Assembly (NCBI RefSeq): GCF_057098645.1
Contig: NZ_JBXSPU010000002.1
Source: a plasmid
DNA length: 64,000 bases
Direction: 5' to 3' (one strand)
Part shown: one piece after another, positions 32,531-61,423 of the stretch
How the letters are laid out: the number at the start of each line of letters is the position of its first letter
Position numbering within the stretch: position 1 is the first letter of the stretch
Program-made: the position numbers and the translations under genes
The notes under the pieces: generated by a model
Told to the model about the DNA's origin: nothing
The model's database searches: none
What the model saw: only the letters and a program-made list of their open reading frames with translations

Positions 32531-32540
32531 TATTATTAAC

Positions 32541-33803: not shown

Positions 33804-33805
33804 AA

Positions 33806-35818: not shown

Positions 35819-35824
35819 ACTCTA

Positions 35825-35868: not shown

Positions 35869-35889
35869 TGAAGGATTAAGGAGCAATAT

Positions 35890-36111: not shown

Positions 36112-36116
36112 TTGTT

Positions 36117-36203: not shown

Positions 36204-36204
36204 A

Positions 36205-37458: not shown

Positions 37459-37460
37459 AT

Positions 37461-37500
37461 CCGATAACTCCCCCGCCTTTTCAGGCCGGGGTGGGTTATC
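37461..37500 (+). promoter_or_regulatory. inverted repeat downstream of toprim gene (possible terminator or processing hairpin)
   Basis: CCGATAACTCCCCCGCC...GGCCGGGGTGGGTTATC followed by T-rich sequence. Confidence 0.4.
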
Positions 37501-37732
37501 TCTTTAGTGTTTATTTACGTTAAATCCTAAACAGATAATCCGATTTCCTTCGTGAAAATCACCTGTTATTCAGGTTTTTTTTACGGCTGAGATGCTTGCT
37601 CAGTTTAATAAATGTGCGATACATCTGGCTACGGTCGGTTGTATGACATGGTATATCCATAAAACTTAAAACCCCTGACGGGAGTATTACCGTTAGGGTG
37701 ATGCTCATCGTTAAATATCGGAGAGCATTGTT

Positions 37733-38257: not shown

Positions 38258-38281
38258 AGATAACACATATTTTTACTACAT

Positions 38282-38317
38282 CCCTGATGGCACCTCCCAT
38301 CGGGGTGGCCCTCAGAG
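38282..38317 (+). promoter_or_regulatory. GC-rich inverted-repeat element (family member) interrupted by IS903B
   Basis: CCCTGATGGCACCTCCCATCGGGGTGGCCCTCAGAG; the last 9 bp are the IS903B target duplication, repeated at 39375-39383. Confidence 0.55.
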
Positions 38318-39374: not shown

Positions 39375-39400
39375 CCCTCAGAGTTGAATCTGGAGGTCTT

Positions 39401-40279
39401 ATGAAATTAGCTACAGATCTGGTCAATGCGGTTCTGATAAAGAATGGCATTGTACCAACTTCCATTAATGAGTTGCCTGTAACGTCGCTGGTAAAGCCAT
39501 TGACACAAGTGCATCTCAGCCTGTATCTGAAAACAACGCATTTATCTCAGTTCGTCCCTGACTACGTTGAGTCTCTGAAAGATTGTCCGGTTTCGTATGA
39601 TATCGGCCTTGAACTTCAGCAGTGTATCAACAGTGCTGAATTGCTCTGTGAAGACATGGAGTCACTTGAGTTTATCTCTGTATGGATAGAGCTCTATACG
39701 TGTAATTCAAAGCAACAGCGGTTTGAGAAAAGTAACTTTTCTTTTCGAACTGAAGATATCGAGCTGGCTAAGATGCTGTCTTGCTCGCATGAAATCTTAA
39801 TAAGTCAGGCGGCTTGTTTCTGGCTTTTGTATTTTGAAGATTTCATGAAATATGTTCGTAATAGGCTCTGTGCATTACTCAGACAGGTTTTAATTTTGAT
39901 TGCAGGACTGCGAAATGTATACCTGCAACGGAATGAAGATCAGTTGATTAAGAGAGTTAAGCACGGGAATGAAATGCTGGAGGTGACTCTTAAAGCTGTT
40001 GCACTATGTTCAATAGAAAGGTATCTGAAATCATATGCCTCTTTACGAACAGAAGCGGCGGCTTCTGGGTTTATCAAATGCATTCAGTCTTATATCAGTA
40101 CTGGTTGGAGACATGGCTATATAGTCTGTCAATATTCAAAAAATGGACGGTCTCTTGGTAAGTCATTACCACTTTTTATAAAAGAGACATCTGAGCATAA
40201 TATACAGAAACGTGTCAATCGCCTTATATCTTCCACGATTTCGGGGCGAAATAAAGATTTAGGTCTTTACGATTTCTGA
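39401..40279 (+). CDS. hypothetical protein, tandem paralog family member 1 (292 aa)
   Basis: shares N-terminal h-x-x-A-h-L motif (LVNAVL) with the four downstream ORFs. Confidence 0.55.
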   Translation: MKLATDLVNAVLIKNGIVPTSINELPVTSLVKPLTQVHLSLYLKTTHLSQFVPDYVESLKDCPVSYDIGLELQQCINSAELLCEDMESLEFISVWIELYTCNSKQQRFEKSNFSFRTEDIELAKMLSCSHEILISQAACFWLLYFEDFMKYVRNRLCALLRQVLILIAGLRNVYLQRNEDQLIKRVKHGNEMLEVTLKAVALCSIERYLKSYASLRTEAAASGFIKCIQSYISTGWRHGYIVCQYSKNGRSLGKSLPLFIKETSEHNIQKRVNRLISSTISGRNKDLGLYDF

Positions 40280-40288
40280 TTAACATTA

Positions 40289-40325
40289 CCCATCCGGGGA
40301 TTACATCCCTGATGGGTGTAATCCC
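40289..40325 (+). promoter_or_regulatory. GC-rich hairpin element (family member)
   Basis: CCCATCCGGGGATTACATCCCTGATGGGTGTAATCCC: stem GGGGATTACATCCC/GGGTGTAATCCC, loop TGAT; GTAATCC also pairs with the downstream GGATTAC at the RBS/start. Confidence 0.6.
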
Positions 40326-40349
40326 ATTTTTTATTTAAGTGAGGATTAC

Positions 40350-41285
40350 ATGAAAATTATTGAGAAAATCATTAATGCATTTCTGATATCGCGTAAACAT
40401 TCAGTGAAGGTCAGTAATGTTATCTGCTTGAGTGGCACCGACGGTAAATTTACTGGAATATGCTGTGACGCCGATGTTTCATTTGATTTTCTTTATTCGT
40501 ATGCCCCCGCATACAGTTCAACATTTTTAGATATCCCGTTTCCTGGGTTTGAAGACCAGGACATCGCGGATTGTGTTAAATGTCAGTTAGATGTAGTTAA
40601 AAATAAACGGAATCGGTCTTTTTTAATTGACCATATTAGATTTCCAGTTTCCTCAAGGGAAGGATTCACTCTGACACGCGGTGATAGTTACGACGTGACT
40701 GAATGTGAATATAATAAGGAACGATTGCTACATCTGACCCGACAAGGACGTTTTTGTGAAGACTATCTCACGTTCAAGGATGGCCTGAGTTCCTTCTTTT
40801 CATTTGTGAATTTCGAATTACATGAAATAGTGAAGGAAGGTATACGTTTGGCACTTGATGTTTTAAACAAGATTACATCTGATCAACCAGACCGTCTTAT
40901 AAAAGACTTTAAGTATCATGATTGCTTCGGCAGTTATAATGTACAAATATTTTCTAAGGGTCTGCCAGTTGATATCCTTGAAACGATGATTGCACCTGAT
41001 AGGTTGTTGTCTAACTTGTCAGGTAGTCGTCAGATTATGAAAAATGCAAGTCGCTATCTTAAAGGCTTTGCCCTCAGTAATCGTGTTTACATGAAATACG
41101 GATGGCGTTTAGCAGATGTTGACACATCTGACTATGCGAAAGTTATGTCAGATAGAGAAATGCATGCCAGAGATGATCTTAAGGCGTTTTGCAGTGTCTT
41201 TTTTAAAGAGTGTTTCGCATCCGGAAAATATGAATACGAAGCATACCTGAGTGAAAGACAACACGCGATTCGTAACGGGTATTAA
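40350..41285 (+). CDS. hypothetical protein, tandem paralog family member 2 (311 aa)
   Basis: N-terminal IINAFL motif; size and position as other members. Confidence 0.55.
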   Translation: MKIIEKIINAFLISRKHSVKVSNVICLSGTDGKFTGICCDADVSFDFLYSYAPAYSSTFLDIPFPGFEDQDIADCVKCQLDVVKNKRNRSFLIDHIRFPVSSREGFTLTRGDSYDVTECEYNKERLLHLTRQGRFCEDYLTFKDGLSSFFSFVNFELHEIVKEGIRLALDVLNKITSDQPDRLIKDFKYHDCFGSYNVQIFSKGLPVDILETMIAPDRLLSNLSGSRQIMKNASRYLKGFALSNRVYMKYGWRLADVDTSDYAKVMSDREMHARDDLKAFCSVFFKECFASGKYEYEAYLSERQHAIRNGY

Positions 41286-41308
41286 TACTTATTATCAACT
41301 TATCTAAT

Positions 41309-41342
41309 CCCTGAGGGAATTCTTCCCTTGGGGAGGATTCCC
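41309..41342 (+). promoter_or_regulatory. GC-rich hairpin element (family member)
   Basis: CCCTGAGGGAATTCTTCCCTTGGGGAGGATTCCC; full stem pairing needs G-U wobble pairs, so an RNA-level structure is suggested. Confidence 0.6.
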
Positions 41343-41362
41343 TCTTAACCGAGGGCTACAAA

Positions 41363-42283
41363 ATGAAAGCGATTTATAAAATAATTGAAGCGATGCTGGT
41401 GAAAATGGGCTTTGAAGGTGCCGTGATCCAAAGTGTCAATCTGGAAACGGGTGTGATTCAGAGTCTAGTTGTTAAGGCTGATATTCCTGTCCGGACTTTA
41501 ATGCCGCATTTAAGGCGATATCTGCGCGATTGTGAGCCTTTATGGGGACATGACGTGGATTACCACCCTATAGCACAATATTGCTCAGGAGCTGCGTTGT
41601 TGAAGGCTGGGCCGGTCACTCTTGAAACCTTTCGGTTTGAGGTTTCAGTGTCAACTGCTCACCTGCGGCTTGTGGATGTTGAGCCGGACTGTCTAAATGA
41701 GGGTGTGAACCGTGAAAAACTGGAGTATGTATATTACCGCTCCAGCAATGCAGACAAGGATCTAATACTTGGTATGGTTGAAAAAGGACATAATTTTATC
41801 AACCATCTGCATGAACTTTTACGCTCGCGCTTATCAACGGCTTTGCCGCTGATTTTCGCAGTTACAGAAAAGATTGCGGAGAGTTCAGTTCCACAAGTAA
41901 TCACCAGCTTTTTCAGTGTTGACCATCAAATCAATGCCCAGATAGTAGTCGAACCTGTACCCGTTTCAGTCGCAGACCAGATAATTTCTGCTGACTGGAA
42001 TGTGTGTAGTGTTTCAGGAGCGGATAAGTTCCTGAACCATGTTAATCGTTATCTGTCGGGTAGGGTGATGAAGCGGCGTATTTACGCTGTTATAGAAGCT
42101 TGCGACGGTGGATCTTTATCCCTCAATGCGAACTTAGGTTGCTTTACATCACCTCTTCTCGTAACTGAGTATAAAATGGTTCAGTCACACTCTTCATCGC
42201 TTTATCGAAAGGCTATAAATAACTCGCTTAAGCAAGTTAATTCGTATGCTCCAGAGCATTCAGATGACCTGCTTTCTATGTAA
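41363..42283 (+). CDS. hypothetical protein, tandem paralog family member 3 (306 aa)
   Basis: N-terminal IIEAML motif. Confidence 0.55.
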   Translation: MKAIYKIIEAMLVKMGFEGAVIQSVNLETGVIQSLVVKADIPVRTLMPHLRRYLRDCEPLWGHDVDYHPIAQYCSGAALLKAGPVTLETFRFEVSVSTAHLRLVDVEPDCLNEGVNREKLEYVYYRSSNADKDLILGMVEKGHNFINHLHELLRSRLSTALPLIFAVTEKIAESSVPQVITSFFSVDHQINAQIVVEPVPVSVADQIISADWNVCSVSGADKFLNHVNRYLSGRVMKRRIYAVIEACDGGSLSLNANLGCFTSPLLVTEYKMVQSHSSSLYRKAINNSLKQVNSYAPEHSDDLLSM

Positions 42284-42292
42284 TTAATTTTA

Positions 42293-42330
42293 CCCATTGG
42301 GGAAGCGTATTCCCCGTGGGGGTTGCTTCC
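42293..42330 (+). promoter_or_regulatory. GC-rich hairpin element (family member)
   Basis: CCCATTGGGGAAGCGTATTCCCCGTGGGGGTTGCTTCC; CTTCCT can pair with the AGGAAG RBS 12 nt downstream. Confidence 0.6.
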
Positions 42331-42355
42331 TTTCTTCATTAAAGAGGAAGTGAAT

Positions 42356-43291
42356 ATGTTTAATGAAAGTGATGATAAAAACTTTGTTAGTGCAATGCTT
42401 AAATGTCAACTTGGCCTGAATATAAGCCAAGAGGATATTACAATATATGACAAAGAAAATCATTTTGAACAACTTTCTTTTAAAGCAAATGTGGCGCTTG
42501 ATGATTTGTTATTTTATCTGGATTTATATATATCAGAATTGATTAAGCATAATGCGCCGTATTCTGAAACTGAAGTCCTTCGGACTAAAATCAAATACTT
42601 TCTTAAAGTATATGAAAAGTCTGGTTTTCAGAACATAAGAATTCGCGGTTATCATAACGCGCACAGTACTATAGATATTGTCGATATCGCATCATTAATA
42701 TTGGCGGGGTCTGTACCGGAGTCTGAACATGATTCAATAGATCCTGTTTTAAGAAAGGAAATCTATCAAAATCGCATGAGTGTTGAGGGTAAAGTTCTCA
42801 TTGCCCGTTTTGCACTTAAGCAATTTTTCCATTCTGATTTTGGTGATTTCATCTTAGAGTTCGAGAAAAGTATCTCCAAGTGTTTGAATACTTCTCTCCA
42901 GATAATTAAATCTGTAAAGAACTCATTTAACCGTTTAGGTCAATATCAATATCAGCGTCGTGTAAAAGATGACCTGACTTTGCATCTTGATTTGAATACA
43001 GATGAATACCCGGCCTGTATGCCAGACCTTTACATCGGTTTCAAGGAGTCTGAAGGGACGACGGGAGTGTATCGCGATGATGAAAAAATCATTCGTCTTT
43101 ATACTGGCGTTAGTTCCGGAAAGGATGTTCCTGTAATGATGACCGTTCGATTCACTGGCTGTGACGGGAGTGTTTTGTCTGAATCATCGCACGGTACTTT
43201 CTGTTCCGTGGGACCTACCGGCCGAGTGCAGGTTTGTGACAGAGTTGCGTTGGTCCAAGAAGCGGTCGAAGAGTTACGGGATGTTGTTTAA
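42356..43291 (+). CDS. hypothetical protein, tandem paralog family member 4 (311 aa from MFNESDD...)
   Basis: clearly paralogous to member 5 (VEGKVLIARFALKQFF vs VDGQVLIARFALEKFW and N-terminal FVSAML vs YVRAVL); AGAGGAAG RBS 5 nt upstream. Confidence 0.6.
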   Translation: MFNESDDKNFVSAMLKCQLGLNISQEDITIYDKENHFEQLSFKANVALDDLLFYLDLYISELIKHNAPYSETEVLRTKIKYFLKVYEKSGFQNIRIRGYHNAHSTIDIVDIASLILAGSVPESEHDSIDPVLRKEIYQNRMSVEGKVLIARFALKQFFHSDFGDFILEFEKSISKCLNTSLQIIKSVKNSFNRLGQYQYQRRVKDDLTLHLDLNTDEYPACMPDLYIGFKESEGTTGVYRDDEKIIRLYTGVSSGKDVPVMMTVRFTGCDGSVLSESSHGTFCSVGPTGRVQVCDRVALVQEAVEELRDVV

Positions 43292-43407
43292 CCCTTGTTT
43301 TTTACCTCTTCATTCCAAAAAGTAACTTTGTTCTACCAAATGACCGCGCTACCTATTCTGATCAACTTGCAGGAAAGAATGGCGCAGTAGTACATATTTT
43401 TAATCCA

Positions 43408-43443
43408 CCCACTGGGGAAGTCGCTCCCCTGTGGGGCACTTCC
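43408..43443 (+). promoter_or_regulatory. GC-rich hairpin element (family member)
   Basis: CCCACTGGGGAAGTCGCTCCCCTGTGGGGCACTTCC; ACTTCCT can pair with the AGGAAGT RBS downstream. Confidence 0.6.
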
Positions 43444-43467
43444 TTTAATAATCCTGAGGAAGTGAAG

Positions 43468-44424
43468 ATGACTAATTCTACTGATAACCAGAACTACGTT
43501 CGTGCAGTACTGGCAGGCATTGGTATTGATTTTGATGAAACAGAGATGTTTATCAGTGTCTCTCATTGCCAGAGCGACGAAGTTTCGTTTACATGCAGTA
43601 TATCAGCCAGTGAGTTAAGAGAATCTGCGGGGCATTATGTGGATACTCTTAATGATACCCAACTGGCTGGCCTGGATGCGGATGCACTCAAGAAGCGACT
43701 GGTTTACTTCCTTGAGGTTTTCGACCTGGTTTCCGGTCAATATCTGGATATTTCCGGTAAACATTTCGCGACCAGCCGCTTTGAATACGACGATGTCTGT
43801 AGTGAGATCCTGAGTAACTCTGCGGACAGCGCCCAGCCAGGTGGCTATGATCGTGAAGAGTACAAAAGACTGATGGAAGTTGATGGTCAGGTTTTAATCG
43901 CCCGATTTGCACTGGAAAAATTCTGGGATACGCATTTTATTGGGCTTATCAACTATGTATCAGATGAAATAACATCCGGGCTTTATGAGGTTTATCGCAC
44001 GTTCAGTGATATAAACATGGCCGGTTATACATTTAGTGAGTATTCATATACGCGTCGTATTACCGACGAACTTAGTTTGCATATTTCACTTAAAGAGGAC
44101 GATTTCGAAGAGCAATTAACCGATTGTTATATGGATGAAACAACGCTGCCGTCTGGCAAGGTGGTTTTACGCCGTAATAATGAATCAATTATTGGGATTT
44201 ATGAAGGATATGCTTCAAAATCTTACTTTCCTATGGTTGCTAATGTTAGAGTCCTTGATACAGATGGTGAAGTTGTTACTGAACTTTACCAAGGGGTGAA
44301 TGTATCAGAATTAGCTGGTGGTCGGATTAAAATCCATGACCGTCAGGAATTAATTTCTGAGGTGTTCGCTAACTTACGTGAATTCATCCCAGCATCAGAG
44401 GATAAAATCTTTGATGCGGCATGA
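43468..44424 (+). CDS. hypothetical protein, tandem paralog family member 5 (318 aa from MTNSTDN...)
   Basis: paralog of member 4; last gene before a rho-independent terminator. Confidence 0.6.
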   Translation: MTNSTDNQNYVRAVLAGIGIDFDETEMFISVSHCQSDEVSFTCSISASELRESAGHYVDTLNDTQLAGLDADALKKRLVYFLEVFDLVSGQYLDISGKHFATSRFEYDDVCSEILSNSADSAQPGGYDREEYKRLMEVDGQVLIARFALEKFWDTHFIGLINYVSDEITSGLYEVYRTFSDINMAGYTFSEYSYTRRITDELSLHISLKEDDFEEQLTDCYMDETTLPSGKVVLRRNNESIIGIYEGYASKSYFPMVANVRVLDTDGEVVTELYQGVNVSELAGGRIKIHDRQELISEVFANLREFIPASEDKIFDAA

Positions 44425-44471
44425 GTCCTGAAGGTTGAATTATATATTTTCAGGTTTTTATACTTCTAAGA

Positions 44472-44500
44472 AGGCACGGTTATCCGTGCCTTTTTTTTTG
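44472..44500 (+). terminator. rho-independent terminator after the paralog array
   Basis: GGCACGGTTATCCGTGCC hairpin followed by T9. Confidence 0.75.
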
Positions 44501-44836
44501 CTTTCGTCAAAACTTGCATTGATTTCACAATTTTACAACGTTCTTACTGCCCTATATGTTTTACGGTACTGTACTCTTGGCACCGTTACATGTAAGCCTT
44601 CCATTACCTTCTTCAACCAAACCTAGCCTAATTTACATCCTTCCAGCTGTTTCCTTCTCTGCTTCTTTTACTCGAATGTTTTGCCCCTTGCTGACGTTTC
44701 CGGCAGCACACAGTCCGAATGCTGGAGCCTCCAAATTACTTTTTACTTCTTTTGTTTCGGTTTCGCGAAAATAGGTCTCTTATCTGAAAAATGGATCGTT
44801 AGAGATTTGTATACTGTTTAAAACAAAGGAGTCACT

Positions 44837-45106
44837 ATGCCTGCCACTACAATCCTGAGCAATAACCCTGTGAATTCGGTCTTCTCTAATGACAATAGCC
44901 ATTTCACATACCGGCATATTGATTTCAGTATTGAGCTACTGCTTTCTTCAGGAACTGACTCACAACTGGAATATCTGTTTCTCAAACCGGCGGCTGAAGT
45001 AAAGATCGATTTACAGCGCCGTTTAGCTAGTGGGGAACGTTACGTTACAACCGAGAGTTGTGACAATTTTAGCGAAGTTGATGGCTGCATGGGACACGAT
45101 TGCTGA
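44837..45106 (+). CDS. hypothetical small protein
   Basis: 89-aa ORF with AAGGAG RBS. Confidence 0.35.
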   Translation: MPATTILSNNPVNSVFSNDNSHFTYRHIDFSIELLLSSGTDSQLEYLFLKPAAEVKIDLQRRLASGERYVTTESCDNFSEVDGCMGHDC

Positions 45107-45160
45107 GGACTTTATAACGGCAGGCGTCCGATTTAATACAACACGAGACACTATCACCTA

Positions 45161-45751
45161 ATGATGACTGAATCGTTCTTTGACTGGGTTGTGTATTGCA
45201 TCACAGGCGTAATACTGGCATCTGCGTTCCTCGAAGGAAAAAGAACCCGTTTTCCGGCTGCATTTTTTTACGGAAGCATTGTGCTGCTGGTCGTTTTGAT
45301 AGTGGCCGGTGCCCTCAACTGGTGGTTCTACCGTTCTAAATTCGGCTCAGTTGTCGTTATTTTTGCCGCGACAACGCTGTTAATGACCCGATTCAGATTG
45401 GTTATTTATGCGTTCAGGTTTCGGACGCTGGTGGCAGATCTCCAATCACATGTAGCCAAGGGATTCAGGATAATCCTTGTCTTACCCGAAAATGAAGACG
45501 AGAAGACCGTTTTGCTTAGCAAATTGTCGAAAGTGATACATTCTGGGACGTTGTTTTATACCCGAACAGCTCTGGGTCCATATTCTGGGGATCTCCTGCA
45601 TGCTCTGGGACAAAAGCACCGAAATGGCGAGGGCTATCTGCTTCTTTGTGAGCAACAACTTCCGGCTCGAACCTGGCTAAGCACTGTAGAAAACGGTCAA
45701 CCAGAGAAGTCTATTGCAGTTAATTTTCATTCGATCCCTGATATGGAGTGA
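45161..45751 (+). CDS. membrane protein (several TM helices in N-terminal half)
   Basis: 196-aa ORF; hydrophobic segments VVYCITGVILASAF, FFYGSIVLLVVLIVAGALNWWF, VVVIFAATTLLM. Confidence 0.45.
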   Translation: MMTESFFDWVVYCITGVILASAFLEGKRTRFPAAFFYGSIVLLVVLIVAGALNWWFYRSKFGSVVVIFAATTLLMTRFRLVIYAFRFRTLVADLQSHVAKGFRIILVLPENEDEKTVLLSKLSKVIHSGTLFYTRTALGPYSGDLLHALGQKHRNGEGYLLLCEQQLPARTWLSTVENGQPEKSIAVNFHSIPDME

Positions 45752-45758
45752 TACCCCT

Positions 45759-46016
45759 ATGAGCAATACAGATTCACAGACCGTACCAGCTGATGCCCTG
45801 TGTGAAAACAGTTCTCAGGTGAAAATTCAGCTAAGTCGAAGCGCCTCACGAGCATTGACGACGGCGAAAGAAATTCTTGAAACCCGAGGGCTGGTATCCG
45901 TATCCACTGAAGACCTTGTTCAGGCCTGTCTCGAAGAAAATCAGCCACTCGACCTGGCAAGTATCTATCTTGAGCACCGGCTAAAACAGAAGGGAACCAG
46001 TATCTGTGAATTTTAG
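45759..46016 (+). CDS. hypothetical small protein
   Basis: internal start MSNTDSQT... of ORF 45714..46016. Confidence 0.35.
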   Translation: MSNTDSQTVPADALCENSSQVKIQLSRSASRALTTAKEILETRGLVSVSTEDLVQACLEENQPLDLASIYLEHRLKQKGTSICEF

Positions 46017-46174
46017 TGTTTTCCAACCTATTGGGGAAATTCCGGAATGTGTTTATATAGCTGTAAGTAAAGCACTGCGTATTCCGCTCTATTCGATCAC
46101 GGATTGGCATCGAAGTCCGATCAGCGATTCGCATCCATTCGATCAACCGGGAACTTAACTTTTTCTACCGCTTT

Positions 46175-46930
46175 TTAACGCGTTTTTTCGCTGCTTTCCA
46201 CTACCGGGGGATTTTTCCTCAGTGACTCTCCCTGAAGGACCACTCGGTGTGAGTTATGTACCAGTCTGTCCAGGATGGCATCTGCTGTTGTTGGGTTCTC
46301 CATCAGACCATGCCATTTATCTACCGGGAACTGGCTTACCACTATCGTGCTGCTTTGTCCGTAACGATCCTCTATGAGCTCCAGAAGGTCATTACACTGG
46401 GCGTTACTTAACTGTTCCAGCCCCAGATCGTCCAGGATTAGAACCTGTATTTTTTGCAACTGTTTCAGATATTTCAGCCAGCTGCCATCAACACGTCCCT
46501 GAGCCAGTTGTTCCAGTAATCGCCCGGTTCTACAGTACCGGACGCTGTGTTTCTGTCGACATGCCTGTTCGCCCAGCGCATTGGCTATCCAGCTCTTGCC
46601 ACATCCTGTCGGACCGGTTATCAGCAGGTTTTTCCTGTGGGTTATGTAGTGGCCGTTCAGCAGTTCTCTCATCTGTTCAGCCCGCAGACCTCTTGAGGCC
46701 GGATAGCGCAGCCCTTCCGGTGTTGCCTGGTATTTCAGGCCGGCATTTTTTCTCAACCGTGCCACACGGCTGTTTTCCCTGCTCAGAAGCTCGTCATCAA
46801 CCAGCAGCGTCAGCCTTTCCTCGAACGACAGTTCGTCGTAGGTCTGAGGCGTTTCCCGCTGCCGTATCAGGCTCCCGGCCATCGCCGGGAGTTTCAGTTG
46901 GGTCAGTTTGTTTAACAGGTTATCACTCAT
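46175..46930 (-). CDS. istB: IS21-family IstB ATPase (copy 2)
   Basis: identical to 29888..30643 product. Confidence 0.85.
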   Translation of the reverse strand: MSDNLLNKLTQLKLPAMAGSLIRQRETPQTYDELSFEERLTLLVDDELLSRENSRVARLRKNAGLKYQATPEGLRYPASRGLRAEQMRELLNGHYITHRKNLLITGPTGCGKSWIANALGEQACRQKHSVRYCRTGRLLEQLAQGRVDGSWLKYLKQLQKIQVLILDDLGLEQLSNAQCNDLLELIEDRYGQSSTIVVSQFPVDKWHGLMENPTTADAILDRLVHNSHRVVLQGESLRKNPPVVESSEKTR

Positions 46931-46946
46931 ACTGTTGTTCCTTCTG

Positions 46947-48512
46947 TCAGTGGTAGTAGCCCGGACCACGCAGGTTTTCATGCTCTGAAGCATATGCCGG
47001 ATGTTGTTCGCCCTGGCGGGATAATGGAAGCTCCAGGTTCTCCCGATGGTGACGCAGCAGATTGTCGATAAAGCGTCTGTCAGGGGCGTTATAGTGCAGG
47101 GCAACGTAACAGGCCTTTTCCAGCCGTTCCGGGCCGTATTTTTTCTGAAGTGCCAGCAGCCCCAGAACTGCACGATAAGCCAGTTCCGGATGGGGTTTTG
47201 CCTTCAGCATGGATTCAACCACCCGGCCTGTGGACGGGCCCGTACGTTTTCCCTGCTCGATCAGGCGTTCCGGTGTCCATGTCCCGTGCTGCCGGTGGCG
47301 CTCTGGCATGTGAAGCGGATTGGTTGTGTGTTTATATTCATGTGTGCTGCGCGGATGTTGCGCCACACACTGCCCCTTGTGCCAGAGCTGTACCACCGAC
47401 TGCCCCGCCTTCAGTGACAGACGCTGACCGACCAGTTCGTGTGGAACGGAGTACCAGTGACGGGCATATTCAACGTGGTAGTCAGGGCCAACCTTCACAG
47501 CTTTGTATTCCGTGTATTCATAAGGTGCCAGAGGCAGCGGAGAGAGTGCTGGCGCATCCAGTATGCGGAAGCGTTCTGCACGGGTTTGATTGCCGTACCC
47601 CTTCATTGGCCGGTTATTCATGTCTGTCAGTAACTCCCTAAGGCGCGCATTCAGCGCCCTGAGCGTGTGGAAGGTTTCATTACGGATGCGGGCAAGAAGC
47701 CATCGTTCAACGATGAGGACGCCGTTTTCTGCTTTTGGTTTATCTTTAGGTTTGCGTGGTCGGGCCGGGATGATAACCGTGCCATAGTGCTCAGCCAGTG
47801 CCTGATAACTGTCGTTGATGACAGGCTCATATCGATCGGCCTTTTTCACTGCGCTTCTGAGGTTATCGGGGATGAGCAGCTTCGGTACGCCGCCCAGGAA
47901 GGTCAGGCAACGGCTGTGGGCATTTAACCATGACATCATGTCCTGACCTTCGCACGCTTCAACGTAGGTATAGTTGGACGCCCCCATTACGGCCACGAAG
48001 ATTGCCACGCGGCGTATCTCACCGGTGTCCGGATTAATAACAGGAACCGTAGGACCACAGAAGTCGATAAAAAGCTTTTCGCCGGCACGATGCTCCTGGC
48101 GCATGGAGAGACGTCGCGTTTTTTTCCACTCCCGGTAGCAACGGCAGAAGTGCGAGTATCCCATCGCTTTGTTACCCGCCTGTGCCTTGTATTCCATCCA
48201 CAACAGTTGCCGCGTCACACCTGGTTTTCTCATTTCCGTATCGAAGTACAACATGTCAGGCATTACAAGCTCTGATGCAAAGGTGTCTTTGGGCGGAAAA
48301 ATGAGTTTCTCCAGCGTGTCATGGGATATATCAGCAGGTAATGGCCATGACAGAGAAGAGGCTTTGAAGCGGGCAAGAACCTCAAAAACGGTTGAGGCGC
48401 TGATGTGTAACGTCAGTCCGATACAACGGTTAGTCAGCTTCTTGTCGAACTTGAGCTGAAGGATCTTAAAACAGGTTTCCATAGTGCTCCTGGATTTTCT
48501 CTTTCTGGACAT
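46947..48512 (-). CDS. istA: IS21-family IstA transposase (copy 2)
   Basis: identical to 28306..29871 product. Confidence 0.8.
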   Translation of the reverse strand: MSRKRKSRSTMETCFKILQLKFDKKLTNRCIGLTLHISASTVFEVLARFKASSLSWPLPADISHDTLEKLIFPPKDTFASELVMPDMLYFDTEMRKPGVTRQLLWMEYKAQAGNKAMGYSHFCRCYREWKKTRRLSMRQEHRAGEKLFIDFCGPTVPVINPDTGEIRRVAIFVAVMGASNYTYVEACEGQDMMSWLNAHSRCLTFLGGVPKLLIPDNLRSAVKKADRYEPVINDSYQALAEHYGTVIIPARPRKPKDKPKAENGVLIVERWLLARIRNETFHTLRALNARLRELLTDMNNRPMKGYGNQTRAERFRILDAPALSPLPLAPYEYTEYKAVKVGPDYHVEYARHWYSVPHELVGQRLSLKAGQSVVQLWHKGQCVAQHPRSTHEYKHTTNPLHMPERHRQHGTWTPERLIEQGKRTGPSTGRVVESMLKAKPHPELAYRAVLGLLALQKKYGPERLEKACYVALHYNAPDRRFIDNLLRHHRENLELPLSRQGEQHPAYASEHENLRGPGYYH

Positions 48513-48716
48513 TGACGTCTCCACTGGTTTAAACACGGCAATGGAGACTGTGGTGAAAAGAGTTAATTCCCGGAGTGACTGGCAGGATGCCAATCAATGA
48601 TCGGAAGCATGCCAAATCGTGATCGATTGTGATGCCAAACTGTGATCGGAGATGGATGCCAAATCATGATCGATTCGAATGCCAAACTGCGATCGATTCA
48701 GATGCCATTTTGCAAA

Positions 48717-49021
48717 AGTGGCATCGCCAGTCCGACCGGTACATTATCCACCCGGTGAACTTTGACCAGGTCACTGTTATCAATAATCAGCACCGATGTG
48801 CGGACATTAACCAGCAGGCTGATAAGCACAAACACGGCCACCCAGCCCAGCAAATCCATCACGTTGTGCCGCTGTACCCACATCACGGCCACCGCGAGAA
48901 CAGACAATGTGAGCGCAATTTTTTCAATGGAATCCCACGTCCTGGTTCCCATAAAGGCGGCAATGGCGTTCAGGTTATTCCGCAACCACTCACCACCGGC
49001 AATCACATAAACTTCATTCAC
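48717..49021 (-). pseudogene. traG: traG 5' fragment (F-type transfer gene) truncated by IS21-family insertion
   Basis: ORF 48698..49021 begins MNEVYVIAGGEWLRNNLNAIAAFMGTRTWDSIEK..., recognised from memory as the N-terminus of F TraG; frame runs into IS sequence after ~100 codons. Confidence 0.7.
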
Positions 49022-49904
49022 AGCGTGCTCCCTCCGAAGTGATAGTTGTTCTGGTAACGACTGAGCATGCGGGCGGAAAGCTGCTGACGCATGTAGCTCA
49101 TCTGACGATCGACAACCAGCAGCGCATCCTGCTGTACCTGCACCTGTGACTGAAACGCCGCAATCTGCCGGGTGGCATCATTCATGTTGTCGTTAATATG
49201 TTCGATAACTGCTTCGTCATAATTTCCTGTGGCCACCATCGCCCGGGCCTGCTGTATCAGCTCCTGAATGTACTGCAGCAGGATGTCGTAACCGATATAG
49301 TCCGTCAGCTGGTAAATCATACTGTTGGAAACACCGAGCATCTGCGGGTCAACCAGGTATTTGAAGACGGGGATGGTGGTACTGGAAATAAAGCCTTTTT
49401 CCTTGTCATCCAGAGGCGTGTCACTGACCGCCTTGTTCTGAATGCTGGCCAGAAGTTTAGTAATCTGAGACTTCAGTGCATTATCCCGGCTGATGGTCAC
49501 CGGTGTGTCTGCCACCACTTTCAGGCATTTATCAGAATCGTTGCAGTGATAAATTTTTGCTGTGCCGCCTTCCATCATGGCCCGGATAATTGAGCGGTCA
49601 GTGGTTCTGGCTGACAAGGGTGTGATTTCGCCGTTAGGACCAAACACCAGTGAGCCGGTCAGCGTCATCACAAACTCTTTCAGCTCTTTGTTGCCGTCAA
49701 ACATTCTGTTTTTGGAAAGCGCATTCCACATGATGTTGATGTTTTTGGTCACCCGCTCCTTATCCTTGTCGCTGGCTTTATCCCTGACACTGTCAGATTT
49801 CCCGCCAACGGTACATCCCTGCCGGGAAGCCGCCCAGTCAGCAAAAATATTGCTCTCACCGGCAATGTCCTGACAGACTTTCTGCTGGGACACCTGCGTC
49901 CGGG
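49018..49904 (-). pseudogene. traH: traH 3' fragment (F-type transfer gene), 5' end replaced by IS629
   Basis: ORF ends 4 bp inside the traG start as traH does in F; upstream part interrupted at the IS629 end (49905). Confidence 0.55.
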
Positions 49905-49946
49905 TGAACCGCCCCGGGTTTCCTGGAGAGTGTTTTATCTGTGAAC

Positions 49947-50837
49947 TCAGGCTGCCAGATCATCGTTTCCGATGGAAGCATAATAAGCTTTTTCTGCTTC
50001 TGCCGGGGGAGTATGGCCCAGCCTTTCCAGCAATCGTCGATTGTTATACCAGTCCACCCACGTGAGTGTGGCCAGTTCCACTTCTGCACGGTTTTTCCAG
50101 CTCTTACGGTGTATTACCTCCGCTTTGTAAAGACCATTGATGCTCTCCGCCATCGCGTTGTCATACGAGTCACCTGTACTCCCTGTTGATGCCAGCAGTT
50201 TTGCTTCTTTTAGTCGCTCCGTATAGGCCAGTGATACATACTGAGAACCTTTATCACTGTGATGGACTGTGCCGGACGGCCGACGGGCCCACAACGCCTG
50301 CTCCAGTGCATCCAGCACGAATGTTGTTTCCATGGATGATGAGACCTGCCATCCCACGATGTATCCGGCGAACACATCAATGATGAACGCCACATAAACG
50401 AAGCCCCGCCATGTGCTGACGTAAGTAAAATCAGCCACCCACAGCTGGTCAGGTCGTTCTGCCACGAACTGACGGTTTACGCGGTCGCCTGCGGCAACGG
50501 CTTTCCGGCTGATGGTCGTACGGACCTTTTTACCCCGGAGAACACCGGCAAGTCCCATAACTGCCATGAGACGTGCCACAGTGCATCTGGCCACTCTGAT
50601 ACCTTCCCGTAACAACTGACGCCAGACTTTACGCACACCGTATACCTGGTGATTTTCATCGTATACGCGCTGTATCTCTTTCTTCAGCCAGTCATCGTGC
50701 TGCGCACGGGCACTGCGTTTATCCGGATGATGTCGCTGTTGCTGACAGTGGTAATACGTTGACGGGGCAATATGCAGTTCGCTGCATAGCGGTCCGACCC
50801 CGTACTGCTCACGCAGCTTATCCAGCAGTGGCATCAT
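49947..50837 (-). CDS. IS629 OrfB (DDE transposase domain)
   Basis: IS3-family integrase-core ORF. Confidence 0.85.
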
Positions 50838-51160
50838 TTTTTCCAGAGGCGGTCGAACTCCGCCTTCGCAAAATAAGCGGAAGCCTGGCGAAGGATATCG
50901 TTACTGCGGCGCAGTTCACGATTTTCACGCTCCAGCTCTTTCAGACGCTGACGTTCAGCGGTGGTGAGCCCGCCATCACCGCCCCCGGTATCCCGCTCAT
51001 GCTGGCGAACCCAGACACGCAGAGTCTCCGGCGTACAGCCAATCTTTGGAGCAATGGAACAAATTGTCGCCCATTGTGAGTCATATTCATCCTGACTTTC
51101 CAGAACCATACGAATCGCCCGCTGACGGACTTCGGGGGAAAAACGAGTATTTTTAGTCAT
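50834..51160 (-). CDS. IS629 OrfA (HTH/leucine-zipper)
   Basis: [23 protein letters not shown]... Confidence 0.85.
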
Positions 51161-51271
51161 CCTGTTTACCTCTTTCTCAGGGAGTTTAGTCTCCAGGATT
51201 TCCGGGGCGGTTCAGCCATAAAGTTATGTTCCTGACGTATGTATTCGTCCCGCAGGAATCAACCAACTGAT

Positions 51272-51661
51272 TTATCTGAATTTATCATGCCCCTCAACTC
51301 TGATTTTATTCATCTTGTTTACCGAATCGGGTATATCTGATAACTGTCCCGATAAGACTTTTTGTTTCGCCAGCATAATCTCTTTTTCAAGCTTTTGAAG
51401 TTCTTTTATATAGTCATTCTTCCCTTCTTCATCAGCCGGTGAAATGCTCTCAGGAAGACGCTTCATTGACTCATCTACAGCATCATCCATTCTGTCAAGA
51501 GCTTCAAGAAGCTCCTTTTTATCCATTGATGACTGAAGTACACTCATATTCCTTGCAAGAACTTGCATGCTTTCATCAAGTTCTTCTGCCACTGTAATCC
51601 CCCCACACAAAAAATATAATGCCATACCACAGCTGATTATAACTTTATTGCTTTTCTGCAT
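51272..51661 (-). CDS. hypothetical exported protein downstream of katP
   Basis: 129-aa ORF with N-terminal hydrophobic signal-like segment; charged helical remainder. Confidence 0.45.
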   Translation of the reverse strand: MQKSNKVIISCGMALYFLCGGITVAEELDESMQVLARNMSVLQSSMDKKELLEALDRMDDAVDESMKRLPESISPADEEGKNDYIKELQKLEKEIMLAKQKVLSGQLSDIPDSVNKMNKIRVEGHDKFR

Positions 51662-51704
51662 AATTTCTCCTTCATGAGGGAGGTGCCCTCCCTCATCAGT
51701 TTTA

Positions 51705-53930
<2,226 letters not shown>

Positions 53931-54087
53931 TTAAGGGAAATTCGCATGTTGTATACAAAAGTCAACTTTATTGATGCAACAGGATATACCTATTGCTGGG
54001 ATAGATACTACAGACAAAAAATACTAAGGGGTTCCAAGCCGCAACTGAACCGCCCCGGTTTTCCTGGAGAGTGTTTTATCTGTGAAC

Positions 54088-54978
54088 TCAGGCTGCCAGA
54101 TCATCGTTTCTGATGGAAGCATAATAAGCTTTTTCTGCTTCTGCCGGAGGGATATGACCCAGCCTTCCCAGCAATCGTCGATTGTTATACCAGTCCACCC
54201 ACGTGAGTGTGGCCAGTTCCACTTCTGCACGGTTTTTCCAGCTCTTACGGTGTATTACCTCCGCTTTGTAAAGACCATTGATGCTCTCCGCCATCGCGTT
54301 GTCATACGAGTCACCTGTACTCCCTGTTGATGCCAGCAGTTTTGCTTCTTTTAGTCGCTCCGTATAGGCCAGTGATACATACTGAGAACCTTTATCACTG
54401 TGATGGACTGTGCCGGACGGCCGACGGGCCCACAACGCCTGCTCCAGTGCATCCAGCACGAATGTCGTTTCCATGGACGATGAGACCCGCCACCCCACGA
54501 TGTATCCGGCAAACACATCAATGATGAACGCCACATAGACGAAGCCCTGCCATGTGCTGACGTAAGTAAAATCAGCCACCCACAGCTGGTCAGGTCGTTC
54601 TGCCACGAACTGACGGTTTACGCGGTCGCCTGCGGCAACGGCTTTCCGGCTGATGGTCGTACGGACCTTTTTACCCCGGAGAACACCGGCAAGTCCCATA
54701 ACTGCCATGAGACGTGCCACAGTGCATCTGGCCACTCTGATACCTTCCCGTAACAACTGACGCCAGACTTTACGCACACCGTATACCTGGTGATTTTCAT
54801 CGTATACGCGCTGTATCTCTTTCTTCAGCCAGTCATCGTGCTGCGCACGGGCACTGCGTTTATCCGGATGATGTCGCTGTTGCTGACAATGGTAATACGT
54901 TGACGGGGCAATATGCAGTTCGCTGCATAGCGGTCCGACCCCGTACTGCTCACGCAGCTTATCCAGCAGTGGCATCAT
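54088..54978 (-). CDS. IS629 OrfB (copy 2)
   Basis: near-identical to copy 1 (e.g. WQGFVYVAF vs WRGFVYVAF). Confidence 0.85.
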
Positions 54979-55301
54979 TTTTTCCAGAGGCGGTCGAACT
55001 CCGCCTTCGCAAAATAAGCGGAAGCCTGGCGAAGGATATCGTTACTGCGGCGCAGTTCACGATTTTCACGTTCCAGCTCTTTCAGACGCTGACGTTCAGC
55101 GGTGGTGAGTCCACCATCACCACTCCCGGTATCCCGCTCATGCTGACGAACCCACACACGCAGAGTCTCTGGTGTACAGCCAATCTTTGGGGCAATGGAA
55201 CAAATTGCCGCCCATTGTGAGTCATATTCGCCCTGACTTTCCAGAACCATACGAACTGCCCGTTGACGGACCTCGGGGGAAAAACGTGTATTTTTAGTCA
55301 T
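54975..55301 (-). CDS. IS629 OrfA (copy 2)
   Basis: near-identical to copy 1. Confidence 0.85.
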
Positions 55302-55736
55302 CCTGTTTACCTCTTTCTCAGGGAGTTTAGTCTCCAGGATTCCCGGGGCGGTTCAAGGTTTGCTTTTCTGTGTAGGTTTAGATTTTGTGTTTGCAGGGTA
55401 AACAAAACTGATTAACTCGTCATTTCGGTAACTGAAATAGTTTGCTGTATTCTGTTTACAATCTCTTTAATAAGGCATTTGTCACGTGGCTATTCATATG
55501 AAAATCATACGTTATCTTACAAATCAATCATCTGAGTGTTATAATATAACTTAGCTGTGATATGTGTAAGAATGTTTAGGCAATATATTATTATCGCTAA
55601 TGTTGTTTTGGTTGGGAGAGATTCTCCTTGCGGTAGCTTTTTGTTTTTAGATGCTTCTTGCTTAAAAAGATATAATTTCTGTTCTTTTATATAGGATTCT
55701 TTACATTTACTGAGTTTTCTTATTTATTTAAACATT

Positions 55737-56252
55737 ATGAAATCTAATGCTTTTGACGTCATGGGGAAGGTTGCATGGCTATGGGCCTGTTCTCCTCTGC
55801 ATAAAAAATGGCCATTATCTGTTTTTGCTATTAATGTCATACCTGCTATTCAGACAAATCAATTTGCTCTCTTAATAAAGGATGAGCTTCCTGTAGCTTT
55901 TTGTAGCTGGGCCAGTTTAGATCTGGAATGTGAGGTAAAATATATAAATGATGTAACATCTTTGTATGCAAAAGACTGGATGTCGGGAGAAAGAAAGTGG
56001 TTTATTGACTGGATAGCTCCATTTGGACACAACATGGAGTTATATAAATACATGAGGAAAAAGTATCCTTATGAGTTATTCAGAGCAATAAGGTTAGATG
56101 AGAGCAGTAAAACAGGAAAAATAGCTGAATTTCATGGAGGGGGGATAGATAAAAAACTGGCATCAAAAATATTCAGGCAATACCATCATGAACTTATGTC
56201 TGAAGTAAAAAACAGACAAGATTTTAATTTTAATATTGAGAAAGAAAACTAA
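55737..56252 (+). CDS. ehxC: hemolysin-activating lysine-acyltransferase EhxC (HlyC family)
   Basis: 171-aa ORF with HlyC-like core (WLWACSPLHKKWPLSVFAINVIPAIQTNQFALL, FIDWIAPFGH); directly precedes the RTX toxin gene. Confidence 0.9.
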   Translation: MKSNAFDVMGKVAWLWACSPLHKKWPLSVFAINVIPAIQTNQFALLIKDELPVAFCSWASLDLECEVKYINDVTSLYAKDWMSGERKWFIDWIAPFGHNMELYKYMRKKYPYELFRAIRLDESSKTGKIAEFHGGGIDKKLASKIFRQYHHELMSEVKNRQDFNFNIEKEN

Positions 56253-56253
56253 T

Positions 56254-59250
56254 ATGACAGTAAATAAAATAAAGAACATTTTCAATAATGCGACATTGAC
56301 TACAAAATCAGCATTTAATACAGCATCATCAAGCGTACGTTCCGCTGGCAAAAAACTCATATTATTAATACCTGATAATTATGAAGCTCAGGGCGTGGGT
56401 ATTAATGAGTTGGTCAAAGCTGCTGATGAGCTTGGAATAGAAATACACCGTACTGAACGAGATGATACAGCGATTGCAAACCAGTTTTTTGGTGCAGCAG
56501 AAAAAGTTGTAGGATTAACTGAACGTGGTGTTGCAATATTCGCACCACAACTTGACAAACTTCTGCAGAAGTATCAGAAAGTTGGGAGTAAAATAGGAGG
56601 AACCGCTGAAAATGTAGGTAATAATCTGGGAAAAGCCGGAACAGTTCTCTCAGCACTACAGAATTTTACGGGGATTGCTTTATCAGGCATGGCTCTTGAT
56701 GAATTGCTGAGAAAACAACGGGAAGGAGAGGATATAAGTCAGAATGATATTGCCAAAAGTAGTATTGAACTTATTAATCAGCTTGTAGATACAATATCAA
56801 GTATAAACAGTACCGTTGATTCATTTTCTGAGCAGCTTAACCAGCTTGGCTCATTTTTATCCAGTAAACCTCGCTTAAGTTCTGTTGGTGGGAAATTACA
56901 AAATTTACCAGACCTGGGCTCCCTGGGGGATGGGCTGGATGTTGTCTCCGGAATTCTTTCTGCTGTATCAGCAAGCTTTATTCTGGGAAACAGTGACGCA
57001 CATACAGGAACAAAAGCTGCAGCGGGTATAGAACTGACAACTCAGGTTCTTGGAAATGTTGGTAAAGCTGTTTCGCAATATATTCTGGCTCAGAGAATGG
57101 CACAGGGGTTATCGACAACAGCTGCAAGTGCGGGTCTGATCACATCGGCTGTTATGCTGGCTATCAGTCCTCTTTCTTTCCTGGCTGCTGCAGATAAATT
57201 TGAGCGAGCTAAGCAGCTTGAATCATATTCTGAACGATTTAAAAAATTGAATTATGAAGGGGATGCTTTACTCGCAGCCTTTCATAAAGAAACCGGAGCT
57301 ATAGATGCAGCCCTGACAACAATAAATACTGTCCTGAGTTCTGTATCTGCAGGAGTTAGTGCAGCCTCCAGTGCATCCCTCATAGGGGCCCCGATAAGCA
57401 TGCTGGTGAGTGCATTAACCGGTACGATATCTGGCATTCTGGAAGCATCAAAACAGGCTATGTTTGAGCACGTTGCAGAGAAATTCGCTGCTCGGATCAA
57501 TGAATGGGAAAAGGAGCATGGCAAAAATTATTTTGAGAATGGCTATGACGCAAGACATGCTGCGTTTTTAGAAGACTCTCTGTCTTTGCTTGCTGATTTT
57601 TCTCGTCAGCATGCAGTAGAAAGAGCAGTCGCAATAACCCAGCAACATTGGGATGAGAAGATCGGTGAACTTGCAGGCATAACCCGTAATGCTGATCGCA
57701 GTCAGAGTGGTAAGGCATATATTAATTATCTGGAAAATGGAGGGCTTTTAGAGGCTCAACCGAAGGAGTTTACACAACAAGTGTTTGATCCTCAAAAAGG
57801 GACCATAGACCTTTCAACAGGTAATGTATCAAGTGTTTTGACATTTATAACACCAACATTTACCCCAGGAGAAGAAGTTAGAGAAAGAAAACAGAGTGGT
57901 AAATATGAATATATGACATCTCTTATTGTAAATGGTAAGGATACATGGTCTGTAAAAGGCATAAAAAATCATAAAGGTGTATATGATTATTCAAAATTGA
58001 TTCAGTTTGTTGAAAAGAATAACAAACACTATCAGGCGAGAATAATTTCTGAGCTCGGAGATAAAGACGATGTGGTTTATTCTGGAGCAGGCTCATCAGA
58101 AGTATTTGCTGGTGAAGGTCATGATACCGTATCTTATAATAAGACGGATGTTGGTAAACTAACAATTGATGCAACAGGAGCATCAAAACCTGGTGAGTAT
58201 ATAGTTTCAAAAAATATGTATGGTGACGTGAAGGTATTGCAGGAAGTCGTTAAGGAACAGGAGGTGTCAGTAGGGAAGCGAACAGAGAAAATACAATATC
58301 GTGATTTTGAATTCAGAACCGGTGGAATTCCTTATGATGTAATAGATAATCTTCATTCTGTTGAAGAGCTCATTGGCGGAAAACATGATGATGAATTCAA
58401 AGGCGGTAAGTTTAATGATATATTCCATGGCGCAGATGGGAACGATTATATCGAAGGTAATTATGGTAATGATCGACTATACGGCGATGATGGGGATGAT
58501 TATATATCCGGAGGACAGGGAGACGACCAGTTATTTGGTGGTAGTGGAAACGATAAATTGAGTGGAGGGGATGGTAATAATTATCTGACAGGAGGAAGCG
58601 GTAATGATGAGCTTCAGGCACACGGAGCTTATAATATTCTGTCAGGTGGTACTGGTGATGATAAACTTTATGGTGGTGGTGGTATTGATCTTCTGGATGG
58701 AGGGGAAGGTAATGACTATCTGAATGGTGGTTTTGGTAATGATATTTATGTTTATAGGCAAAACTATGGTCATCATACAATTGCAGATGAAGGAGGTAAA
58801 GGAGATCGTTTGCACTTATCTGATATTAGCTTTGATGATATCGCATTTAAGAGAGTTGGAAATGATCTTATCATGAATAAAGCCATTAATGGTGTACTTT
58901 CATTTAATGAGTCAAATGATGTCAATGGGATAACATTTAAAAACTGGTTTGCGAAAGATGCCTCAGGAGCAGATAATCATCTTGTTGAGGTTATAACAGA
59001 TAAAGATGGTCGAGAGATAAAAGTTGATAAAATACCTCATAATAATAATGAACGGTCAGGTTATATAAAAGCCAGTAATATAGCATCTGAAAAAAACATG
59101 GTTAATATCACCAGTGTTGCCAATGATCTTAATAAGATTATTTCTTCAGTTTCAGGATTCGATTCAGGTGATGAACGATTAGCATCTTTATATAATTTAT
59201 CCTTACATCAAAACAACACACACTCAACAACTTTAACGACAACTGTCTGA
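56254..59250 (+). CDS. ehxA: RTX pore-forming toxin EhxA (enterohemolysin, 998 aa)
   Basis: ORF from [10 protein letters not shown]...; Gly/Asp-rich nonapeptide repeats (GGxGNDxLx) at 58380-58760; HlyA-like hydrophobic and acylation regions. Confidence 0.9.
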
Positions 59251-59299
59251 GACTAAAAGAGGAGGTGATGGCCATTCCAGGAGGAATGGTCATCGTTAT

Positions 59300-61420: not shown

Positions 61421-61423
61421 CGT

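Follow-up and report, generated by a model that had tools for sequence, protein, structure and literature searches.

A truncated traG as the apparent joint between an IncHI1 tet(X4) plasmid and pO103-type virulence-plasmid DNA

The 64,000 nucleotides of plasmid DNA discussed here (contig NZ_JBXSPU010000002.1 of RefSeq assembly GCF_057098645.1; hereafter ‘the window’) include fragments of two genes of an F-type conjugative transfer operon, traG and traH, each of which breaks off at an insertion sequence (IS). The two breaks have different histories. The one in traH is shared with a group of pO103-like virulence plasmids; the one in traG lies at an IS21-family element, on the far side of which is the backbone of an IncHI1 plasmid that carries tet(X4). 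We propose that the IncHI1 tet(X4) plasmid and DNA of a pO103-type virulence plasmid were fused by the IS21-family element, with the break in traG as the joint, and that an inversion followed. We put the probability of this reading at roughly 80%. Coordinates are positions in the window throughout, unless the IncHI1 reference is named, and everything said of the window comes from one assembly.

The first fragment, denoted traG', lies in an open reading frame (ORF) of 107 amino acids (48698-49021, minus strand) whose N-terminus reads MNEVYVIAGGEW.... This ORF matches the Pfam model TraG_N (positions 1-105 of 462, E = 2.8e-20) and the NCBIfam TraG model PRK13735 (positions 1-101 of 922, E = 1.5e-43). 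Compared with the intact, 938-amino acid TraG of plasmid p3R-3, residues 1-102 are kept and 101 of the 102 are identical, leaving a single substitution. The last five codons of the ORF and its stop (48698-48714) are supplied by the IS21-family element and not by traG; the true traG DNA is therefore 48715-49021. The second fragment, traH', lies directly upstream on the same strand. The interval 49018-49902 (minus strand) matches the Pfam model TraH (PF06122, positions 136-358 of 358, E = 1.6e-50) and the NCBIfam model PRK13723 (positions 165-456 of 457, E = 3e-166). Its alignment to the intact, 457-amino acid TraH covers residues 164-457, and an IS629-type element directly abuts residue 164; the N-terminus, comprising the export signal and the first 163 residues, is missing. 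Because both are fragments, both score below the NCBIfam cut-offs for full-length members (traG', 149 bits against 600; traH', 553.5 bits against 625), and traG' falls well short of the full length of about 938 amino acids.

F-type TraG acts in mating-pair stabilization and entry exclusion, and TraH in pilus assembly. To judge from its sequence, traG' is a gene fragment and no functional member of the TraG family. Together, traG' and traH' make up a block of 1.2 kb, the relic of an F-type transfer operon, without function of its own. A search of the whole window found no other F tra DNA in it, and the F-type nic motif had no match there. An initial annotation of this region had described about 100 codons from the 5' end of traG, cut by an IS21-family element, and the 3' part of traH, cut by IS629, as the remains of a decayed F-type transfer region. 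As a description this stands. The fragments correspond to codons 1-102 and 164-457; the coordinates given for them were correct to within 17 bases; and both ORFs align to the TraG and TraH family models and to the intact proteins. The IS21-family cut is borne out by matches to IstA and IstB and by the boundary of the element, which spans 46076-48714, and traH' is indeed abutted by a 1,310-bp element of IS629/IS1203 type, a name that holds for the type only. That the F-type system had decayed agrees with the closest relative described below, in which no pilus genes are listed and traG is frameshifted.

The element at which traG breaks off has the marks of the IS21 family: istA followed by istB, defined TG...CA ends (TGCAAAATGG...GGAATACGCA) and a 5-bp target duplication, spread in this case over two copies. 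Its IstA matches NF033546 with 284 bits (cut-off 160) and its IstB matches PF01695 with 204 bits. A comparison of the window with itself shows the two copies to be 100% identical and inverted with respect to each other (a 2,640-bp match). Identical copies elsewhere are named ‘IS21-like element ISSso4 family’ by PGAP, and 100% identical copies of this ISSso4-like element are common in Escherichia coli and E. fergusonii from farm animals, including poultry. Copy 2 bridges traG' and the IncHI1 backbone, which it meets at the breakpoint named site a below.

About 45 kb of the window (1-28103 and 30743-46075) is 100% identical to the 190-kb plasmid pYPE10-190k-tetX4 (CP041449), whose coordinates we use as the IncHI1 reference, and to more than 40 similar plasmids. 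Apart from the breaks at the IS21 copies, the IncHI1 parts differ from the reference solely in two IS903-type insertions. The genes tet(X4) (11152-12309) and floR (2266-3480) and the copies of ISCR2, recognized by matches to Tet(X), FloR and the ISCR family, are all in these parts. Within the window, there is no virulence-plasmid DNA to the left of 48715 and no IncHI1 DNA to the right of 46075. On this evidence the window is a chimera of an IncHI1 tet(X4) plasmid and pO103-type virulence-plasmid DNA. Since IncHI1 backbone, and not traG, lies beyond the IS21 element, the break in traG is best read as the joint between two different plasmids. DNA of two plasmids joined through a copy of an IS, IncHI1 at 100% identity on one side and pO103-type at 99.6% on the other, is the structure of a cointegrate.

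The joint is also unique in the collections searched. In 22 of 22 relatives, the match to the window ends exactly at 48715 and the rest of traG follows. A 200-bp probe across the IS21/traG' junction was covered in full in none of 72,556 plasmids, and a 4.9-kb probe of the junction found no site with at least 80% coverage in 5,426 complete E. coli genomes (megablast). The chimeric 107-amino acid ORF has no exact entry in the gene index, and a junction 37-mer has no exact match in the JGI metagenomes. Two plasmids, p3R-3 (NZ_CP049351.1) and CP110413.1, were considered as matches to IS21 together with traG'/traH' and rejected: they match in two separate pieces, the IS21 element lying between trbJ and traQ, and their traG is intact. 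Two others, p1902-MDR and p53EVA-2, were considered as matches to IS21 together with IncHI1 DNA; they carry the IS at other sites, and are no proof of a pre-existing IS21 element at either of the IncHI1 breakpoints described below.

The traH junction behaves differently. Using a 200-bp probe across traH'/IS629 and counting as a match only end-to-end coverage in one piece (PLSDB), we found this junction unchanged in 22 pO103-like plasmids, of 43-84 kb, from enterohemorrhagic (EHEC) or atypical enteropathogenic (aEPEC) E. coli. One of these is NC_013354.1, which we take to be pO103 of the O103:H2 strain 12009. Another, NZ_CP043544.1 (82,910 bp, pig source), agrees in size and source with pF2_18C_FIB, a pO103-like FIB13 virulence plasmid in which IS1203, a variant of IS629, is the most abundant IS (PMC6985150). 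The closest relative is NZ_CP024480.1, from strain 2011C-4315, with 99.6% identity over 48715-64000 in a single alignment and the same order of traG', traH', IS629, cytochrome b562, katP, IS629 and ehxCABD. Its listed F-transfer genes are traM, an SLT transglycosylase gene, finO, traX, traI, traD, traT and a hypothetical gene in the position of traS. No pilus-assembly gene is present in its complete feature table, from which pseudogenes and a number of coding genes are missing. The traG of this plasmid (5609-8307 in the NZ_CP024480.1 locus) has a 1-nt deletion at nucleotide 516 that leaves ORFs of 188 and 719 amino acids. The nic motif has exactly one match in this plasmid, between traM and the SLT gene. 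MOB-suite calls the plasmid ‘conjugative, MPF_F’ despite the absence of any listed pilus gene, which looks like an over-call.

Because the traH junction is identical in 22 plasmids, the closest of which lists no pilus genes and has a frameshifted traG, the cut in traH is old and inherited, predating this replicon, and the F-type system was dead before this DNA parted from its ancestor. The initial annotation had put both cuts down to one process of decay; an inherited traH junction in 22 plasmids as against a unique traG junction argues against this. Nor do the ISs part the fragments from the remainder of a tra operon, as it had also supposed. Past the IS629-type element come cytochrome b562, katP and ehx, and past the IS21 element comes IncHI1 backbone. 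The features of the window that bear on these conclusions are collected in Table 1.

Table 1. Main features of the 64,000-nucleotide window and their coordinates
Feature	Position	Strand	Details
IncHI1 tet(X4) multiresistance DNA	1-28103		Reference 65663 down to 38627; includes one IS903 insertion
IS21-family element, copy 1	28104-30742	+	Inverted with respect to copy 2; flanked by the right-hand sides of IncHI1 sites a and b
IncHI1 backbone segment, 15.3 kb	30743-46075		Reference 24365-38631 plus one IS903 insertion; inverted with respect to the other IncHI1 DNA
IS21-family element, copy 2, ISSso4-like	46076-48714	-	2,639 bp; istA within 46947-48593, istB within 46175-47173
traG'	48715-49021	-	Codons 1-102 plus 1 nt of 938-codon F-type traG; by Pfam, NCBIfam and alignment to p3R-3
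traH'	49018-49904	-	Codons 164-457 plus stop of 457-codon F-type traH; the 5' 163 codons are gone
IS629/IS1203-type element (IS3 family), truncates traH	49905-51214	-	1,310 bp; orfA 50834-51160, orfB 49947-50837
Cytochrome b562 and katP module	51215-54045	-	Cytochrome b562 51272-51661; katP 51705-53915; same annotation in NZ_CP024480.1
IS629/IS1203-type element, second copy	54046-55355	-	Direct repeat of the first, 97.5% identical
ehxCABD enterohemolysin operon	55737-62863	+	EhxA matches NF033203, 2311 bits

The IS21 copies also mark a rearrangement of the IncHI1 DNA. Window positions 23049-28103 correspond to reference 43681 down to 38627, and 30743-46075 to reference 24365 up to 38631, from which it follows that the 15.3 kb lying between the copies has been inverted. 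In the IncHI1 backbone there are breaks at two places, reference 24364/24365 and 38627-38631. With traG, this makes three breakpoints: site a, which is intergenic; site b, in a hypothetical gene 2.4 kb past trhI; and traG itself. The pentamer AGCAC/GTGCT (38627-38631), present at this place once in the reference, borders each IS21 copy of the window on its left. This split AGCAC is the 5-bp target duplication left by an inversion, through either intramolecular replicative transposition or recombination between inverted copies. The remaining flanks are AAAGT... on the traG side and CTCGT... (reference 24365, site b). They share no duplication, as expected for DNA from different molecules. All the orders of events that we constructed lead to the same final structure. 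A composite transposon made of two inverted IS21 copies was rejected: its outer flanks, GTGCT and AAAGT, show no duplication, and the site a duplication is on one outer and one inner flank, as an inversion would leave it.

Repeats of this kind can also mislead an assembler. Separate IncHI1 and virulence plasmids, each with an identical IS21 element, might have been misjoined or mis-oriented through the 2.6-kb repeats: two 2,639-bp copies are 100% identical, a segment between inverted repeats assembles either way, and each of the three junctions is unmatched in all other records searched. Such an artefact would, however, require an IS21 element at each of three particular places, namely a, b and traG, and it would have to split the site a duplication exactly as a real inversion leaves it. 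Moreover, when the 15.3-kb inversion is reversed computationally, traG' is still joined through the IS to IncHI1 DNA, at site b. We give an artefact a small chance.

Fusion of two plasmids by the IS21-family element, followed by the inversion, most likely came about in this way. The relic probably derives from an EHEC or aEPEC virulence plasmid of the pO103 or pF2_18C_FIB type (IncFIB; ehx, katP). In that lineage, an IS629/IS1203-type element would have replaced everything upstream of traH codon 164, with the pilus genes lost and traG decaying. An active ISSso4-like element would then have fused a pYPE10-type IncHI1 plasmid with the whole of the virulence plasmid, or with a block of it, at traG codon 102. 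The fusion would have proceeded by IS21 transposition, possibly through a cointegrase activity of IstA, and a further IS21-associated event would have inverted the 15.3 kb afterwards. A cointegrase isoform of IstA, described for the IS21 family in PMC10122671 with reference to Schmid et al. (1998), catalyzes replicon fusion; that the element in the window works by the same mechanism we infer by analogy. A third IS21 copy is predicted outside the window, where it would join IncHI1 position 24364 to the 3' part of traG. Its flanks should be the reference sequence ...CAGTTACGGAGGTGAAAATGCTGAATTAG, probably followed by a CTCGT repeat, on one side, and on the other traG from about nucleotide 303, with an AAAGT repeat (48715-48719, plus strand). 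Under the same model, the replicon should also carry both IncHI1 trh regions and, from the virulence plasmid, the IncFIB replicon, traM/oriT, traI, traD and etp/stcE.

Several points weigh against this reconstruction. Only one of the two fusion junctions to be expected is within the window, which shows neither the IncHI1 trh genes nor the remainder of traG and of the virulence plasmid. The structure comes from a single assembly with two 100% identical repeats of 2.6 kb; none of the three IS21 junctions is present in any independent sequence searched; and a literature search found no paper on a plasmid that combines tet(X4) with ehx/katP. Either plasmid may have donated the IS, and either transposition or homologous recombination may have produced the inversion.

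The initial annotation had judged self-transmission of the plasmid improbable, unless it has intact tra genes elsewhere, on account of the broken F tra genes. This does not follow, because tet(X4) is on an IncHI1 backbone of the MOBH/MPF_F type of which a nearly identical member conjugates. The reference, pYPE10-190k-tetX4, with which the window agrees in backbone, is typed as IncHI1A, MOBH, MPF_F and conjugative. The IncHI1 relative in question, pTECL_2-190k-tetX4 (MZ773210), is 99.96% identical, and in filter matings it passes to E. coli J53 (PMC9045145). Neither of the breakpoints a and b is in an annotated trh gene of the reference; the trh genes themselves fall outside the window, the end of trhI in the reference being 2.4 kb away from site b in the direction that leads out of the window. 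By analogy with these plasmids, self-transfer of the hybrid would run on the IncHI1 trh/MOBH system and not on F tra. Transfer of IncHI1 plasmids is thermosensitive. The F relic says almost nothing about the transmissibility of this replicon. Thus of the initial interpretation the fragments, the cuts by ISs and the dead F system stand, and the single process of decay, the separation from a tra operon and the verdict on transmissibility do not.

The same observations bear on the alternative that the replicon is simply an F-type plasmid in which two IS insertions brought about the decay of its own tra operon in place, leaving it non-self-transmissible and dependent on a helper for the spread of tet(X4) and the virulence genes. 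Its fragments are genuine F-type traG and traH, the window has neither a further F tra gene nor an F-type nic motif, and the closest virulence-plasmid relative is without pilus genes, all of which it would accommodate. Yet what follows past the IS21 element is not traG but IncHI1 backbone, 100% identical to that of the reference, and tet(X4) is on that part; the IncHI1 family is of the MOBH/MPF_F type, with a 99.96%-identical member that conjugates; and the cut in traH is older than the replicon. In-place decay is, in our estimation, very unlikely.

How much of the virulence plasmid came along is a separate matter. F tra (pilus) genes are not expected elsewhere on the replicon, since none is listed for the plasmid that most resembles the ancestor. 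If the virulence plasmid was joined as a whole, F-type oriT, traM, traI and traD should be present too, and would offer a second, helper-dependent route of transfer. It is possible, at a little short of even odds, that the replicon is a complete, self-transmissible cointegrate driven by its IncHI1 part, combining tet(X4), a determinant of resistance to the last-resort drug tigecycline, floR and other resistance genes with ehx, katP and possibly etp, stcE and lpxM, that arose from an IS21 cointegrase event in traG and may retain the F-type oriT, traI and traD. Alternatively, only a block of virulence-plasmid DNA, from traG' through ehx and beyond, would have been captured by the IncHI1 plasmid, and the remainder, with the 3' end of traG, traD, traI and oriT, would have been deleted after the fusion or never have moved. 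Such a capture could have used the IS629 copy in which the window ends (63817-64000), a likely point of recombination; IS629 copies without target duplications mark earlier rearrangements in this DNA, and related plasmids differ by whole IS-bounded modules. No feature of the window speaks against capture of a block, which shares its demonstrated features with the fusion of whole plasmids and differs only in DNA that is not seen. We regard it as rather unlikely.

Comparison with known systems helps to separate what is new here from what is not. Plasmids of the pO103 type resemble the window in the traG-traH'-IS629 junction, which is the same to the base, and in the ehxCABD operon that follows, with cytochrome b562 and katP in some members; identity over 48715-64000 is 99-100%, and in the closest relative only traM/oriT and traG-traX are left of the transfer region. 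They differ in that their traG is of full length (although frameshifted in NZ_CP024480.1) and is followed by the hypothetical gene in the traS position, traT, traD and traI, whereas in the window traG ends with codon 102 at the IS21 element and IncHI1 DNA follows. The 190-kb tet(X4) plasmids of type IncFIA/IncHI1A/IncHI1B are 100% identical to window positions 1-46075 apart from IS insertions. Unlike the window, they lack an IS21 element at sites a and b, an IS903 at either of the places where the window has one, and any virulence-plasmid DNA, and their 15.3-kb segment is not inverted.

Fusion plasmids carrying tet(X4) have been reported before, e.g. pCSZ11R and pCSX5G-tetX4, which were formed by IS26 (PMC8694195). 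Like the window, these are two plasmids joined through an IS at the junction. In the IS26 cases, however, the partner is another resistance plasmid; here the element is IS21/ISSso4-like, with IstA/IstB and a 5-bp duplication, the partner is a virulence plasmid, and one junction is visible. Replicon fusion by IS21 itself, insofar as it is summarized in PMC10122671 from Schmid, Seitz and Haas (1998), provides the same family, two-gene organization, TG...CA ends and joining of replicons through the IS. There the cointegrase acts on tandems of IS21; in the window no tandem is visible, nor is a matching junction occupied by another copy in direct repeat. Remnants of decayed tra regions in EHEC plasmids and fusions of plasmids through ISs are, in short, already known. 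What was not found in the collections and papers searched is this junction, and the pairing of an IncHI1 tet(X4) plasmid with pO103-type DNA. Neither PLSDB nor the complete E. coli genomes of RefSeq yielded a hybrid of tet(X4) with ehx/katP, and the same holds for the searchable literature, where co-occurrence is at the level of the isolate only; katP, for example, was present in 2.6% of tet(X4) E. coli genomes, again counted by isolate (PMC9320811).

The relic is best regarded as a marker. It indicates that ehx/katP DNA from an EHEC-type plasmid unable to move alone has become physically linked to an IncHI1 tet(X4) plasmid of wide distribution, and to read it as a sign of non-transmissibility would lead to a wrong assessment of risk. 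If the hybrid is real and transferable, conjugation would bring EHEC plasmid virulence genes into new hosts, and selection by tetracycline, florfenicol or tigecycline would co-select and spread them. The unique IS21/traG' junction, for instance as the k-mer GATGCCATTTTGCAAAAGTGGCATCGCCAGTCCGACC, could serve as a specific marker, by the polymerase chain reaction or by k-mer search, for tracking the hybrid. The epidemiological interest is moderate, and would be higher if a complete conjugative resistance-virulence cointegrate were demonstrated.

On the virulence-plasmid side, the element abutting traH' encodes an orfA product of 108 amino acids (HTH_Tnp_1) and an orfB product of 296 amino acids (rve; NF033516, 313 bits), the arrangement of the IS3 family in 1,310 bp, between inverted termini TGAACCGCCCCGG.... 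The type name IS629/IS1203 is tentative; it is given from the length and termini, together with the abundance of IS1203 in the plasmid matched above to NZ_CP043544.1 (PMC6985150). No target duplication was found for the two IS629-type copies, in any pairing, and because of this they would be rearrangement joints, which fits deletion or recombination mediated by the IS better than simple insertion. In many relatives the cytochrome b562-katP module is missing and just one IS separates traH' from ehxC, a pattern suggesting that the module was gained or lost by recombination between IS629 copies. The third IS629-type copy, in which the window ends, is inverted and partial, as in NZ_CP024480.1, and is downstream of ehxD and a colicin M immunity region.

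On the IncHI1 side, the two IS903-type elements (IS5 family; 21992-23048 and 38318-39374) are 1,057 bp each and 100% identical. Both have their own 9-bp target duplications (AGTTGCTGT and CCCTCAGAG, respectively) and both are missing from the reference, and for these reasons we consider them to be recent simple insertions. Direct repeats of ISCR2 type (IS91-like, ISVsa3) occur around tet(X4) and floR, at 4376-5970/9084-10678 and 1630-1939/10622-10931. They are the usual context of tet(X4), and are 100% identical to those of the reference plasmids. Finally, a repeat of about 770 bp is present three times in the resistance region (13407-14175, 18204-18973 and 20618-21386), with 94-99% identity and one copy inverted. 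Each copy holds an ORF of 167 amino acids, and the homologous sequence in p1902-MDR is annotated as an IS1A-family transposase.

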